A stretch of DNA of 64,000 nucleotides from Yuukianura sp. NJ FZ-2021. Its lineage: Eukaryota. The position numbers were made by a program, and so were the translations under genes. The notes under the pieces are model-generated. The model was not told where the DNA came from. It searched no databases and worked only from the letters and a program-made list of their open reading frames with translations. This document shows, piece after piece, positions 1 through 8,738 of the stretch. Numbering within the stretch: the first letter of the stretch is position 1; the number at the start of each line of letters is the position of its first letter. The DNA is taken from positions 9,672,001-9,736,000 of the forward strand of contig CM102287.1 of assembly GCA_046563655.1 (NCBI GenBank), written 5' to 3'.

Positions 1-1027
1 ATTCTTGACGACGACATGTCGCTACTTCTGATGTCGCTCCGGAAGTCATTGACCTTCGACTTGACCTTGACCTGCTTGATTCTGCTCGTTTCTGTCTGGA
101 TGGGGATGAAGGCTGTTCCAGAAGATATTCGGGAATGTTTAGCGGCAGTTTTTGAAAAAGGAGGAAAGGCCGGTTGAGGTCAAGGTCAAAGACGAGGTCA
201 AGCGGAATTTGGTGTCCAGTGTGATTTGTTATGCTGAATTCTAATTGGACGGTTTCTGGAATACGGTCTTCTGATTGGCCAATCATTCTGGTCATGTTTA
301 TAGAGTAGAAGTTGCGATGTTTGGTCCAGCGGAAGTGATGATGCTAGGATTTTCAAAATTTGAATTTCAAGAATTCTAAAAACTGGATTTAAATTTTCAA
401 AATTTTCAATTTTTTAAAAACCTGTTGAGTTGTTCTAAAAGTGACGTGCAGAGTCACTTGAGCAGGAACAAAACCTGGATCTTGTTGGACATCTTTTCGA
501 AGTGTAAAGAGAAGCCGAATGGAATGGAAATCGCTTAAATTTTGACCAACTGAACTCAAGTTGTAAAAGGCTGTTCCATCTAGGATTCAAAATTTTTCAA
601 AATTTTGAAATTTCTTTTTAAAAAACGCTTAAGAGTTTAAATAGAACATTTGATTAGGCGGAACATGAAAGATTTTAGCGGCAAGCTTTTAAGTTCAGTG
701 AATTGCTAATTTTGTGGTTTGTTTATTTTAAATTGTTTAAAAAATTGACAACTTACGATGAAATTTTGATGGAAGAACGCTTTGAACTAAAGTTTGATGT
801 CCGGTCAAGTGATTTAGCATTTGACCTTGACCTGCAGAGGTCAAGAGGTCAAATAACTTAAGCAAATACACTGGAGGTGTTGATCTTGATCCATTTTGGG
901 GCAAATTGAGACGAATCGCTGATTCGCTGAAGCGCTGAATCGCTGATGAATGTCGCAGATGAACGAACGACAAAATGTCGCTCACGAGGCAGAGCAAAGT
1001 CAACGCTTGACTCACTTTCAGCGGCAT
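1..1027 (-). CDS. TGF-beta/BMP superfamily ligand precursor (3' end outside window)
   Basis: Exons 1027-757, 579-422 and 343-<1 join in frame at GT-AG. N-terminal hydrophobic signal (ALTLLCLVSDILSFV), prodomain motifs PPVYLLKLF and FYNLSSV, furin site RQKR, then the start of the mature domain (..ATCRRQE) at the window edge. Confidence 0.8.
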
Positions 1028-1777
1028 TCGTTTTCGAAATTTCAAAATTTCAGAAATACTTTTCCAAAAGATTTTTCAAAATTGAAATTTTGGAAAATTT
1101 TTGAAGTCAACTCTGTTCGAGGAATGAAACTGAGAGGAAGGAGGCACAGGTAATAAACTTCTTTTTTCTTTCTGCTTCAATCTGCGTGTGACTTTTAATT
1201 GTTCTCGGTGACAATTAATTAAGTTAAACAATTTGCAAATTTGCAATTTCAATTTGCAAATTATTGGCAGAGACTTTATAACATTATAACTTTTTAACAA
1301 TGAGGAAGGATGGTCCAGAACCGTCTCGAATGTTTCAATCTTTGCCCTTGCAAAAGAAGACTTTAACTTTGCCAATTTTTGCAAATTTGCAAATCTTACT
1401 CATTTTTTTAAAATGGAACTGTGGGAACTGGGTATTTGGTAACTTGATCTCTACTTAACATCTCATCTCTGATCTGCATCTTTTCAAATCTCTTTTTTGC
1501 AAATTCACACCAACAATTTAAAAATTTCTTAAATTATTTACAAAAACTTAAATGAAAAAACTTTAAACATTTTTGAAAAAAAGTTAAGCAAAAGTGAAAG
1601 TGAAAGAAATTGGATTTTTACAAGTTAAAGTTTTTAAAGGTAAATTTTCACATTTTTATTAAATGTTTAAAGAAAGCTCATTCGACAATTATTGGTTTTT
1701 GACTTAATTTAGTAATGAAAAATGTTGATTTTTGGATTGTTGATGATTTGGTTGTTGATGTTTTCACTGTTGCTTGT

Positions 1778-3505
1778 TTAGCACTTCGAGCCTTTTCCTC
1801 TCTTGACACGACGCTTCTTTTGAGGAGTGCAGGACTTGGATTTCGAAACTTTCCGAACTAAAAAATTAAAACAATTAGTCAATTAATAATCGAATTAAGT
1901 TAATTAATTGAAAAGTTAAGTTAATTAAAAATCGGTTTAAATTGTTTTACCTTTTTTCGTCGGACCACATGCAGATGCACGTGACCGACGACGTTTACCT
2001 CCTTTCCCTCCCGCCGACGAACGACCAGTTCTGGATCCTGAGGTCAAAGGTCAAAGGTCAAGTTTTTTAAAATTTTGAAAATCTTGAAAATGGACAATTT
2101 GAAAACTTACGTCGGCCTCCCTTTCGTCCGCCTCTCTTGGTCGGAGTGCAGCTTCCTCCTTTGGAGTTCCTCCGGCTTCCGGATCCTGAGGTCAAAGGTC
2201 AAGTTTTTTTTTAAATTTTGAAAATCTTGAAAAATGGAAAATTTGAAAACTTACGTCGGCCTCCCTTTCGTCCGCCTCTCTTGGTCGGAGTGCAGCTTCC
2301 TCCTTTGGAGTTCCTCCGGCTTCCGGATCCTGAGGTCAAAGGTCAAGTTTTTTTTTTTTTTTTTTAAATTTTGAAACTGGACAATTTGAAAACTTACGTC
2401 GGCCTCCCTTTCGTCCGCCTCTCTTGGTCGGAGCGCAACTCCCTCCTTTGGAGTTCCTCCGGCTTCCGGATCCTGAGGTCAAAGGTCAAAGGTAAAGTTT
2501 TTTTAAAATTTTGAAAATCTTGAAAATGGACAATTTGAAAACTTACGTCGGCCTCCCTTTCGTCCGCCTCTCTTGGTCGGAGTGCAGCTTCCTCCTTTGG
2601 AGTTCTTTCGGCTTCCGGATCCTGAGGTCAAAGGTCAAGTTTTTTTAAAATTTTGAAAATCTGGAAAATGGACAATTTGAAAACTTACGTCGGCCTCCTT
2701 TCCGTCCGCCTTTCGGAGTGCAACTGCCTCCCTTTGAACGTTTCCTGGTTTTGCTTCGTCGCACTTTCTTGCCAGGAGAACAGGAGCCTTTGCTGGATTT
2801 GCGCTTGCGCTGCTTCTTGCCAGGAGAACAGGAGCCTTTGCTGGATTTGCGCTTGCGCTGCTTCTTGCCGGGAGAGCAGGAGCCCTTCGTTTTTCTCGGC
2901 TTCTTCTCCTGGTTTGTAGGGGAGCAGGAGGCCTTGGTCGTTTGAGGCTTCTCTTCCGGTGGACAAGCCGAAGCTGACTTCCGACTTTGGCGCTCGTCGG
3001 TTCCACCTTCAGCGTTTTTCAGAGCATCCTGCTCCCGTTTCTTCTTCAGTCGCTCGCTGTGACGCGTAGGGTTGCCTCCTTTCGGGATTTTCTTCACGCT
3101 GTGAAAAAACAAGGTCAAAGGTCAACAGAGGTCAAAGGTTAAGAAAGGTCAAAGGTCAGCAGAGGTCATTTCACTTACACCCTGCCTGTCTTGGGCCCAC
3201 TTTTGCTCTTCTTCCCTCCTCCACTGCTTTTTGTGGACCTGTTGAGGTCAAATAAGGTCAAGTTCAAGGTCAAAAGTGGAGTAGAGGTCAATGACTTACT
3301 GTGCTCGCGACTTCGGTGGGTCACAGGCCATCTCGGAGTCGCCGGAGTCATTGGCCTCTTCCAAAAACGTCGAAGGCGTACGCCCAGTTCCAGTTTGTCC
3401 AGATTCTTCGACTAAAAACAGATTAATTGAGTTTACATTAATTGAATTTACTAATTTACTAGTAGTTTGGAAGATGTTCTGTGACGAGTTCTTACCTTCT
3501 GCCAT
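1778..3505 (-). CDS. Highly basic K/R/G/S-rich protein, protamine-like / sperm nuclear basic protein candidate
   Basis: Ten exons (3505-3496, 3411-3300, 3238-3179, 3098-2689, 2621-2547, 2472-2398, 2329-2255, 2185-2111, 2037-1951, 1857-1778) splice in frame. Repeats GSCSPGKKQRKRKSSK and RSGSRRNSKGGSCTPTKRGGRKGGR; many S/T-P-x-K motifs; AATAAA near 1655-1660. The gene model is solid; the function is inferred from composition. Confidence 0.7.
2031..2700 (-). repeat. Tandem array of near-identical 143-149 bp units, each one 75-nt exon plus one intron
   Basis: Directly visible: repeated ggatcctgaggtcaaaggtca...gaaaacttacgtcggcctcc units. Confidence 0.95.
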
Positions 3506-3703
3506 GTCCCACTAAACGATTCACTTTAAATTAAGATGCAGGTCAATGAACTTTGACCTTTGGTCAATGAACTTTTGGTATTTGAAGAACGAAGGAAACA
3601 AGTTGGATCGGTGAGAACCAAAACGAAAATGACTTGGGGAATTGCTGTTGGCAGCCCTTTTATAGAAAATCTGAGGAATAGGATTTGGCTTCTTTTACTC
3701 CAA

Positions 3704-3770
3704 AGGTCAATAACCTTTGGGAGGTCAATGACCTTTGGGAGGTCAATGACCTTTGGGAGGTCAATGACCT
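3704..3770. repeat. 18-bp tandem repeat of AGGTCA-a-TGACCT (IR1 palindrome) between the divergent genes
   Basis: Three perfect copies (3722, 3740, 3758) and one imperfect copy (3704). Confidence 0.9.
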
Positions 3771-4243
3771 TTTGCTTTTTTGCAAACTTTTTGCAACAAG
3801 TAAAACAAACAAAGATTTGATTTGGTGGCTATAGCGTCCACTTGGTGGCGTCCCAATGTGGAATTTGGATTTGAAAAACCCGGTTTTTGGAAAAATAGCT
3901 TTTGGAGCCAAAACGAAGGTCAACAATGAAAATGCATTGAAGTTGATGTTGGCTCATTCGTTAATTGGTAATCAGTGAATTAATTGGAACATCCTGGACT
4001 TTTGGAAATACTGGAAGAGGTCAAACACATTGTACTGAGGCAATACTTGGACTAGATTTGGAATTAAGGTGATATTTACCTTGCTAACAGCTGTTATAGT
4101 TAGTTATGTTTTTGGATTATTTATTGGATTAATGTATTATATAATAGGATTATCTAATACTAAAATTGCTTTGAATATGCAGGCTACTGGACCGTGTCAT
4201 CATTAGGACCAAGATCTAACTTTTATTGAGGTGACTAATTAAT

Positions 4244-5422
4244 ATGGAAGATCAGAAGATGACCGCACCGCCAGTGCCACCGCCGCGTACTCCGATCAAA
4301 GTAGAGCCAGGAACGACAGTCAAACCAAGTCCATCGAAGAGACAGAAGGTTGACGACGAAAACGAAGTAGCTGACAATGTCAACATCAAGAAAGAGCCTT
4401 TGGACTTGGATCATATCAAGACCGAACAAGATTACAAATCAGTTCCACAAGAAGATAGCGACGAGGAGGACAAATCGTCGGAGGAAGTTCGACGCAAGGC
4501 TCCGATTCAACTTCGTGTTGGTGACATTTTTCATATGGCTAATCACAATCCATACCAACATAAATTCGGAGGACGGGACTTCAGTGGGACAAATGGAACA
4601 TTTCCAAGAGAAACTGACCCTGGTGTGCTGGCTAGACGGTACAAACAAATCGAGTACGGCAAAGGAACTCCGGAATACAAGCAGTACAGAAATGCTGTTC
4701 CAAGGTGAGTCACTAATCGTAATCATGACGTTTTCCTTAACTAATCGATCTGTGTTTATATAGCTAACATGCAAAAATACGGCAGTGTGGATCTAACTTG
4801 ACAGATTTTTATCTTTCATCAGCAGTTTTTCGGATTCCACGAGTTGGATCCTAACCTTTCTCACACTTTTTAGCCAAATCAGCTGTTTTAAAATCGAAAT
4901 TCCAACGTTTTTTTTTTTGTTTGCAGAGAGGAACGACTTCCGCAGCATCCAAAGACTCCCAATCTCAATCGGAAGTACAGTCGTCGTGCCTGGGACGGTT
5001 TGATTCGTCTCTGGCGTTGCAGTTTACACGTCTGGGATCAAGATCCGGAAGAGGCCCAACGTCTCCTCAGACTCCGTCGACAGCAAATTCAAACTGGATC
5101 TTACTCGTCAACTGGCGAATCAACTTCCACTGCTTCCTCGGTCATGGGAGATGGTGAAGGCTCAATCTTCTTTGAAGAAGATCCAGATCAAACTCTGTTG
5201 GAATTCAAGGTCAAAGTGGAGGAAGAAGAAGAATTCAAGGTCAAAGTTGAACAAAATGGAACTCCAGTGACTTCATCTGCATCATCTCCTGATCAAAATG
5301 ATGTCAATCGATCATGGTATGATGAGACCCTTGAGTATGAAAATGATTACCTTGACATCAATGCTCCAAATGTCGAAGAGTTTGAAGTGAAAGTCAAGAC
5401 AGAGGTCAAAGGTCAGGAATGA
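4244..5422 (+). CDS. SLBP: Histone mRNA stem-loop binding protein
   Basis: Exons 4244-4704 and 4927-5422 give [69 protein letters not shown], the SLBP RNA-binding domain. Confidence 0.92.
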
Positions 5423-8112: not shown

Positions 8113-8738
8113 ATGAGATTCCGGACATATGGACTTACAGCGATGCTGTTAAAATCAACCACTTCCAAGTCAACCAACGACGCTTCGCGTCAACTAGAAA
8201 GTAATTTCTAGAAAAACAACGTCATTGACGTCAAATGCAGGAATCTATGCTTGTTATTCCAATAGCAATAACTATGTTTTAATTTCATTTTAGTAGGTTT
8301 TTGATGTGTAAATAATCATTAGATGCGGACTTGGCAGAGTCCTGGAAAGATACCCGCCCAAAAGCTTCCCCCAGAAATGAAATGATACCCGGCAAAAAGC
8401 TTCATCCCGAAATGATTCCCGCCCAAAAGCTTCCGCCAGGAATGATACCAGGCAAAAAGCTTCATTCTGAAGTGATACCCGTCAAAAAGGTTCCTCCTGA
8501 AGTGATATCCGTCAAAAAGGTTCCTCTGGAGCTCATGCCAGCCAAAAAGCTTCCTCTGGACTTCATCCTACACAAAAAGGTTCCTCTGCATTTACCCGTC
8601 AAAAAGCTTCCTCTGGACTTCATGCCACCCAAAAAGGTTCCACCGGATTTTATACCCACGAAAAAGCTACCTCTGGACTTCATACGCGCCAAAAAGGTTC
8701 CTCTGGAGCCTCCCTTGACACAAAAAGTTAAAAAATGA
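8113..8738 (+). CDS. Possible orphan Lys/Pro-rich repeat protein
   Basis: ATG at 8113, donor at 8201 and acceptor at 8322 join in frame to the ORF carrying about 11 decapeptide repeats (E/D-M/F-I-P-x-K-K-L/V-P-x). No recognisable homology. Confidence 0.35.
8378..8705 (+). repeat. Degenerate 30-bp tandem repeat (about 11 copies)
   Basis: Recurring aaaaagcttcctctgga / aaaaaggttcctc at about 30-bp spacing; one unit is 27 bp, so the frame is kept. Confidence 0.85.

Follow-up and report, generated by a model that had tools for sequence, protein, structure and literature searches.

A lineage-restricted gene with a tandem exon-plus-intron array in Yuukianura sp. and its predicted product, a candidate sperm chromatin precursor

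An intact spliced frame, kept under purifying selection, indicates that the stretch of 64,000 nucleotides from Yuukianura sp. NJ FZ-2021 analysed here (the window) carries a functional, lineage-restricted gene for a predicted nuclear and intrinsically disordered protein. With a probability of about 0.5, we propose that this protein is a protamine-like (PL-type) precursor of sperm chromatin, built like Mst77F or bee P2. The gene is real and selected, a good candidate that is easy to test, and its sperm function is a guess from its composition.

Little is known of the sperm chromatin proteins of arthropods. According to the available part of a recent study, the only arthropod sperm nuclear basic protein (SNBP) sequences were those of Drosophila until six neopteran species were added, and genome mining mostly fails to find such proteins (PMC12216123). 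In the literature searched, which left most subscription journals outside its scope, no paper on springtail SNBPs was found. With the present gene, for which primers, junctions and predicted peptides can be given, the sperm chromatin question has a specific candidate and becomes testable in a springtail-type lineage. Convergent, orphan SNBPs are an already known kind of protein; what is new is the predicted large Gly/Ser-rich protein made of C-x-P modules, the micro-cassette array that encodes part of it, and a possible nucleosome-docking motif.

Gene model and exon-plus-intron array

The gene extends on the minus strand from an ATG at 3505 to a TAA at 1778, and the features described below lie on that strand unless another is given. 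Its ten coding exons, separated by nine GT-AG introns of 61-93 nt, form a spliced frame of 1059 nt in which the only stop is the one at its end, the remaining two spliced frames containing stops; GC content is 57% in the exons versus 28% in the introns. The coding part of exon 1 (ATG, 10 nt, 3496..3505) is followed by exon 2 (112 nt, 3300..3411), which encodes an acidic N-terminal segment and is present in one copy in the whole genome, by exon 3 (60 nt, 3179..3238) and by exon 4 (410 nt, 2689..3098), which contains the tail of a weakly charged region and then six C-x-P modules. At the other end, exon 9 (87 nt, 1951..2037) is a diverged module with C-G-P, and exon 10 (80 nt, 1778..1857) brings the final C-T-P module, the terminal Cys and the stop. 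Upstream of the ATG we located a TATA box (3658..3664) and an initiator-like TCATTT (3627..3632), the predicted transcription start, which gives a 5' UTR of ~125 nt; the initiator consensus used is that of Drosophila. TATA box and initiator at such a spacing are the sole pair on both strands of the window. An AATAAA poly(A) signal (1655..1660) is found 118 nt past the stop.

A tandem array (2048..2711) is formed by the end of exon 4 together with five introns and the four 75-nt exons; for this array, TRF returned a period of 144, 4.6 copies, 91% matches and a score of 1118, the highest of the 86 rows of the window. Unit 1 corresponds to exon 5 (2547..2621, phase 1-1), unit 2 to exon 6 (2398..2472), in which C-A-P replaces C-T-P, unit 3 to exon 7 (2255..2329) and unit 4 to exon 8 (2111..2185), identical to exon 7. 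The pairwise differences among these exons are 5, 2, 2, 3, 3 and 0 nt; the five repeated introns (67, 74, 68, 69 and 73 nt) are mutually different and each of the four exon-plus-intron units is distinct. An assembly slip, whether by collapse or by inflation, is unlikely because the five introns and the four units can be distinguished from each other.

The sequence-only reading had reported four near-identical, symmetric phase-1 exons of 75 nt repeated with their introns, which was borne out (0-5 nt apart, and detected by TRF), and its proposal that the gene grew by tandem duplication of an exon with its intron, a recent lengthening, is supported. It had also placed partial copies in both flanking exons. 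The copy in exon 4 stands, since its last 25 nt match the unit at 22/25 positions (0/500 shuffles), but in exon 9 the likeness is limited to the first 9 nt (8/9), the score of the full exon being reached by 167/500 shuffles. In the same way, a Cys is present in 4/4 units as claimed, but a TPxK site in 3/4, unit 2 being the one that reads C-A-P.

Computed products with 0-4 units are all in frame and range from 252 to 352 aa, with a net charge of +61 to +97 and 10-14 Cys; a tuning of length and charge through exon skipping or copy number is thus a possibility compatible with the frame. All three frames are open over the 75-nt units, and for this reason the open frame in these units proves little. 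This point, together with the lack of any homologue found, would fit a gene that does not work, or an array whose copies multiplied in the assembly, a reading that we consider very improbable given ten exons in one frame, nine consensus introns, the GC difference between exons and introns, the TATA box with its initiator, the poly(A) signal, an excess of silent changes in the modelled frame (see below), and an array of distinguishable units and introns.

Growth of the gene and its broken copy

A separate 48-nt (16-aa) coding repeat had been noticed within exon 4, and its existence was confirmed: TRF gave for 2766-2884 a period of 48, 2.5 copies and 97% matches, the whole repeat (2736..2884) encoding three S-C-S-P-G-K-K modules. 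The middle copy is a hybrid, its first 23 nt being those of copy 3 (23/23) and its last 25 nt those of copy 1 (25/25), which is the signature of an unequal crossover. Two states of this repeat were found in the genome, three copies in the gene (contig C5) and two in the broken copy on contig C8 described below.

The origin of the 75-nt unit can be read from its flanking exons: its head matches exon 9 (8/9), its body (24/35) and its tail (22/25) match exon 4. From these small alignments, on which the growth history rests, we infer that the simplest course would be a duplication that broke within two neighbouring exons and carried along the intron between them, its product being then amplified to four; the 75-nt exon would owe its symmetry to the fact that a single intron was copied to both of its sides. 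The gene would have grown by old internal duplications of modules, by an unequal crossover of 48 nt within exon 4, and by the intron-spanning duplication, which may have joined the beginning of exon 9 to the end of exon 4 and so given the 75-nt exon that was later amplified to four. The locus keeps within one gene a record of three routes by which modules are added: divergence of old copies, an unequal crossover confined to one exon, and a duplication across an intron from which a symmetric exon results.

The mechanism of duplication itself is ordinary, the amplification of an exon with its intron being already a known growth route for repeat proteins. EBNA-LP of EBV, with its isoform ladder, and apolipoprotein(a), with its kringle repeats, are cases of cassette amplification. 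They resemble the present array in that the repeat unit includes introns, keeps the frame and permits a variable length through copy number or skipping. The W1-W2 repeats of EBNA-LP are mentioned in the accessible part of PMC8501971. In contrast to EBNA-LP and apolipoprotein(a), the unit here is just ~144 bp with one exon each, and the gene is a putative sperm chromatin gene. No example of the amplification of an exon-plus-intron cassette in a sperm chromatin gene was found in the literature searched.

The broken copy lies on contig C8 of the same genome (~13,014,500-13,014,900), spans ~400 bp including an intron, and comprises exon 4 without its first quarter, intron 4 and the initial 31 nt of exon 5. 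We rejected it as an intact paralogue, since it begins within exon 4, ends 31 nt into exon 5 and has nothing else of the gene nearby. The DNA on either side of it is unrelated; a short inverted/direct repeat marks the junctions, and one side has a palindromic site rich in A/T. Apart from this fragment, no further paralogue was found in the genome. When a double C-[ST]-P pattern was searched genome-wide, seven matches were obtained, three in this gene, one in the C8 fragment and three unrelated; two of the three unrelated loci were translated and neither has a basic frame.

Comparison of the C8 fragment with the gene over 86 codons revealed 14 nt differences. Read in the modelled frame, these give a pN/pS of 0.25 (p 0.008), as against 2.07 and 2.18 when either of the two remaining sense frames is used; this alignment omitted the first ~13 codons, which contain two 3-nt indels. 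One antisense frame gave 0.32, as expected for a mirror of third positions. Pooling of these differences with those between the repeat copies led to 13 silent and 8 replacement changes (p 0.0006), or to 12:9 with an alternative rounding (p 0.002), for which the C8 comparison taken by itself has a p of 0.047. Although the numbers are small, these values point to a constrained protein, with purifying selection acting on the modelled frame. The exon part of the C8 copy is 5% diverged, but, oddly, its stretch of intron 4 and exon 5 is identical to the gene across 98 nt (p 0.004 if this stretch changed at the rate of exon 4), which suggests that a recombinant allele was the source, by conversion or by capture.

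Composition of the protein and its possible role

The predicted protein has 352 aa, a pI of 11.8 and a net charge of +97, with 32.7% of K+R (K 17.6, R 15.1, G 17.3, S 15.3 and C 4.0%, that is 14 Cys). The residues I, L, V, F, M, W and Y account for 14/352 positions, with one Phe, zero Trp and zero Tyr, and the mean hydropathy of 0.31, against an order boundary of 0.51, places the protein far on the disordered side in a charge-hydropathy analysis. Neither a signal peptide nor a membrane stretch was seen in the protein sequence, which has many basic clusters. It is thus very basic, of low complexity, disordered and without a secretion signal, as are sperm nuclear basic proteins, and the protamine-like composition that had been proposed for it is supported by its K+R content, its pI and its disorder.

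Its layout is uneven along the chain. Residues 1-37 have a net charge of -7, residues 38-110 are moderately basic, and residues 111-352 have a net charge of +92 with 38% of K+R, the mixture of Lys and Arg being that of PL-type proteins; one acidic residue is present in the last 242 aa. Arg amounts to 15% overall and to 20% in aa 126-352, and long Arg clusters are absent. The weakly charged first third has one Cys, the 13 others being at aa 106 or beyond. The basic remainder, rich in K/R/G/S, is organized in 12 modules of the form "basic run - S/A-C-x-P-x-K". The triplet C-x-P involves 13 of the 14 Cys, that is 13 observed versus 0.83 expected, a value that 0/20000 shuffles reached, and with a single 25-aa unit retained the count is still 10 versus 0.71 expected. 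These triplets occur singly, 13-36 residues apart. The precursor-like layout and the fixed C-x-P module are, in our opinion, stronger arguments for a sperm chromatin precursor than the TPxK sites.

Indeed, the S/T-P-x-K/R sites had been taken as a mark of sperm chromatin proteins, a use that turned out to be weak. The protein contains seven of them, a number reached in 13/20000 shuffles (111 with one unit), and 6/8 of the genome's own H1 genes have 5-8 such sites, the two others having 0-1; these sites being common in its own H1 genes, they therefore mark a CDK-regulated basic protein and not a sperm one. In the part of the source at hand, the sperm-histone motif is defined as SP(K/R)(K/R) (PMC9903204), and this strict motif has 0 occurrences in the 352-aa protein, in contrast to the SPKK-type sperm histones. 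As in those of sea urchins and hydrozoans (PMC9903204, in that same part), Ser/Thr-Pro is repeated in a basic context and could in principle be switched by phosphorylation, but the present protein has neither SP(K/R)(K/R) nor a histone fold.

Canonical protamines are described, in the available part of PMC12216123, as ~30-106 aa long when mature and Arg-rich, with Arg clusters and a pI of at least 12. The present protein departs from them by its 352 aa, 15% of Arg, 18% of Lys and pI of 11.8. No winged helix of H1/H5 was found: PF00538 detects eight places in the genome, none of them here, and hydrophobic residues are too few. The MST-HMG box (PF06382) of the protamine-like proteins of Drosophila is absent as well, exons 2, 4, 5, 9 and 10 having no Pfam match. 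Spider protamines and bivalve PL-I derive from H1/H5, and the spider precursors carry the winged helix, as far as the consulted portion of PMC11607694 goes; the present protein may resemble them by a basic C-terminal region freed from a longer precursor, but differs by the lack of a winged-helix domain.

Closer likenesses were found among insects. Mst77F of Drosophila loses ~30% of its length at the N-terminus and retains all 10 Cys, in the part of PMC5133442 that was available. The two proteins are alike in being basic and of chromosomal type, with a first third that looks dispensable and nearly all Cys in the part that is retained; they differ in that Mst77F is shorter, its sperm role is proven, and no sequence similarity was found between them. 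Mst77F is not known to be built of exon-sized tandem repeats. Winter-flounder repeat SNBPs are a further term of comparison, for which the literature search gave no confirmation. For the honey bee (Apis), the accessible text of PMC12216123 describes a P2 precursor with a less charged, disordered segment (aa 1-69) and a charged C-terminus. In general, the insect protamine and protamine-like precursors share with the present protein a disordered N-terminus of lower charge and a C-terminus that is highly basic; some species also have Cys, and the PL type mixes Lys and Arg. In comparison with them, our protein, with its 352 aa, is Gly/Ser-rich, has at least as much Lys as Arg, lacks long Arg clusters and repeats a fixed C-x-P-x-K.

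On this basis we predict that the protein would be synthesized in spermatids, where its N-terminal third, with its acidic start and a nucleosome-docking-like motif, may help loading on histone chromatin before being cleaved off. The basic modules would neutralise and bundle DNA, CDK-type phosphorylation beside the Cys would loosen DNA binding during deposition, and the regularly spaced Cys would form disulfide cross-links in mature sperm.

The same Cys allow another interpretation, namely a basic structural protein with Cys/Pro repeats, of sperm or elsewhere, that stays outside chromatin and is hardened by disulfides, as a component of flagellar accessory structures, of a perinuclear coat or of a mitochondrial derivative. 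C-x-P is the most conserved element of each module (13/14 Cys), and this triplet is found in ODF1 and in the Mst87F proteins of the Drosophila sperm tail; Don Juan and Dhmst101 have Lys-rich repeats that include Cys. Our literature search did not confirm these precedents in fly tail proteins, however, neither for C-x-P nor for Don Juan and Dhmst101, and the available text of PMC9499666 describes ODF1 as high in Cys, with no mention of C-x-P in that text. Cylicins, basic cytoskeletal sperm proteins with Lys repeats and a pI >10 (PMC10684152, available part), are also in its favour, but their repeats are KKD/KKE. As the C-x-P triplets stand alone and form no runs here, and as a net charge of +97 with so few acidic residues suits a polyanion partner, we regard a structural role as unlikely.

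The N-terminal third contains the motif PTRHSERL (aa 71-78; 3047..3070), similar to PPRRSSRL of tardigrade Dsup and to RRSARL of vertebrate HMGN. The arginines of the Dsup/HMGN motif are buried in the acidic patch of the nucleosome, in the part of PMC12487698 that was available. Compared with the RRSxRL core, RHSERL keeps both anchor arginines, the Ser and the Leu, but replaces the second Arg by His and has a Glu inside. The pattern RxSxRL appears in 199/20000 shuffles, a p of ~0.01 that is uncorrected for a motif spotted after the fact, and it occurs nowhere else among the 12,862 ORF residues of the window. It falls outside the region common with the C8 copy.

This motif could make the protein a chromatin coat of the Dsup or HMGN kind, with PTRHSERL docking on the acidic patch and the basic tail wrapping DNA, as a shield or a compaction factor in soma or germ line, the tail length being set by the number of units. 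In favour of it, PTRHSERL shares with the Dsup motif its Pro, Ser and Leu as well as the two arginines that are buried (PMC12487698, in the section consulted), it is the sole match in the ORFs of the window, and Dsup is also disordered, with its motif and a DNA-binding C-terminal region (PMC12480509, available part). In contrast with Dsup and HMGN, the motif here is imperfect by two departures noticed post hoc, it is N-terminal, the repeats are Cys-rich, and no search with exon queries found similarity to either protein. A complex prediction of acidic-patch binding fails for HMGN2, according to the same portion of PMC12487698. We therefore hold such a coat to be rather improbable, and PTRHSERL is also compatible with a sperm chromatin precursor, as a putative loading device.

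A bolder combination, which seems to us quite doubtful, would be a newborn chromatin protein of springtail type, in which a Dsup/HMGN-like docking motif is combined with a basic tail that forms disulfides and can be switched by CDK. In living populations this tail would differ in length, through the number of exon-plus-intron copies and through skipped exons (five lengths that keep the frame, net +61 to +97). The protein would be either the first sperm chromatin protein from a hexapod that is not an insect, using the acidic patch to load before the histones are evicted, or a DNA shield similar to Dsup but of independent origin.

Lineage restriction and gene neighbourhood

Homologues were searched with exon 4 (136/352 aa) or with single exons as queries. 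With these exon queries, none of the 1976 candidates of the search for longer proteins was a homologue (0/1976), the PDB gave 0 matches and the Atlas no usable match, and Pfam recognized 0 families in exons 2, 4, 5, 9 and 10. None of 588 metagenome stretches with the pattern was confirmed (0/588). Among 1.84 billion representatives, four matches, two from amphioxus, one in a fish TMC protein and one unnamed, were discarded as non-basic repeats sharing just an S-P-G period. As far as seen, the gene is lineage-restricted within the reach of these searches, by which low-complexity, fast-evolving proteins are readily missed.

The basic gene is head-to-head, ~740 bp away, with a divergently transcribed two-exon gene for SLBP (histone stem-loop binding protein; PF15247) on the plus strand (4245-5422), exon 2 of which shows 62% identity with a JGI protein that has no name. 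On its downstream side, the basic gene is immediately followed by a ligand gene (1-1027, minus strand), which we take from its motifs to be of TGF-beta type; Pfam found nothing on two fragments of it. The scan for synteny with SLBP gave four loci, of which one, an arthropod contig (L025), was usable; L026 was too short (1.1 kb), and L027 and L028 were dropped as prokaryotic chance matches. L025 preserves the order of the TGF-beta-type ligand gene (29-64% identical to that of the window), SLBP and the next minus-strand gene, and the 2-kb interval between ligand and SLBP showed no match to the basic protein (best E 2.8 in the entire locus, filter off). Lineage restriction, also part of the sequence-only reading, is thus supported by the lack of a homologue with exon queries and by absence from the syntenic interval, the latter in one informative contig. 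The orphan status and this absence fit what is seen for fast-turnover reproductive genes.

The two divergent promoters have between them an 18-bp tandem repeat of 3.8 copies (3704..3772, no strand assigned), placed 40-110 bp upstream from the TATA box of the basic gene and containing three perfect AGGTCAnTGACCT IR1 palindromes and an imperfect one. The IR1 AGGTCAnTGACCT is ecdysone-element-like. As a sign of hormone control this cluster was set aside as weak, since IR1 doublets number 27 genome-wide and none of the five other loci inspected is TATA-proximal. Fly spermatocyte promoters are often TATA-less, and a promoter with TATA box, initiator and IR1 palindromes would also suit a moult-regulated somatic gene.

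Such a gene could encode a somatic or ubiquitous low-complexity protein of nucleus or nucleolus, RNA-binding or forming condensates through its R-G-G and K-G-G runs, possibly regulated by moult or together with SLBP. Every 75-nt unit encodes R-G-G-R-K-G-G-R-R, the SLBP gene is a head-to-head neighbour and the palindromes adjoin the TATA box. However, housekeeping RGG proteins are conserved and have folded domains, regularly spaced Cys being atypical of them, and the basic gene is an orphan without folded domains; it is missing beside SLBP in L025, and the IR1 doublets are not linked to promoters at 5/5 other loci. We therefore find this somatic role improbable.

Several other features of the genome were observed. 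On contig C3, two divergent H1 genes at ~4.64 and 4.71 Mb have 0 and 1 S/T-P-x-K sites and are possible germ-line or replacement variants, and adjacent divergent H3 variants at ~703-706 kb show, for one, many substitutions in tail and fold and, for the other, an insertion of two residues after K27. Contig C7 carries at ~1.573 and 1.608 Mb a near-identical duplicated open frame of 370 aa, which gives us the impression of an alpha-helical enzyme of terpene-synthase type. In the window, an acetylcholinesterase exon is 56-65% identical to insect enzymes, which identifies the animal as an arthropod, and an open frame of 140 aa (8316-8738, plus strand), another basic/proline repeat with ~12 decapeptide repeats P-x-K-K-[LV]-P-x-[ED] and no Pfam match, lies between exons of neighbouring genes. 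An 872-aa single open frame (34290-36908, minus strand) encodes a repetitive, strongly acidic sequence that has a membrane stretch at its C-terminus, and a further open frame (41454-42158, minus strand) contains several AT-hook-like GRPRK motifs and is followed by more long frames, possibly derived from a transposon.
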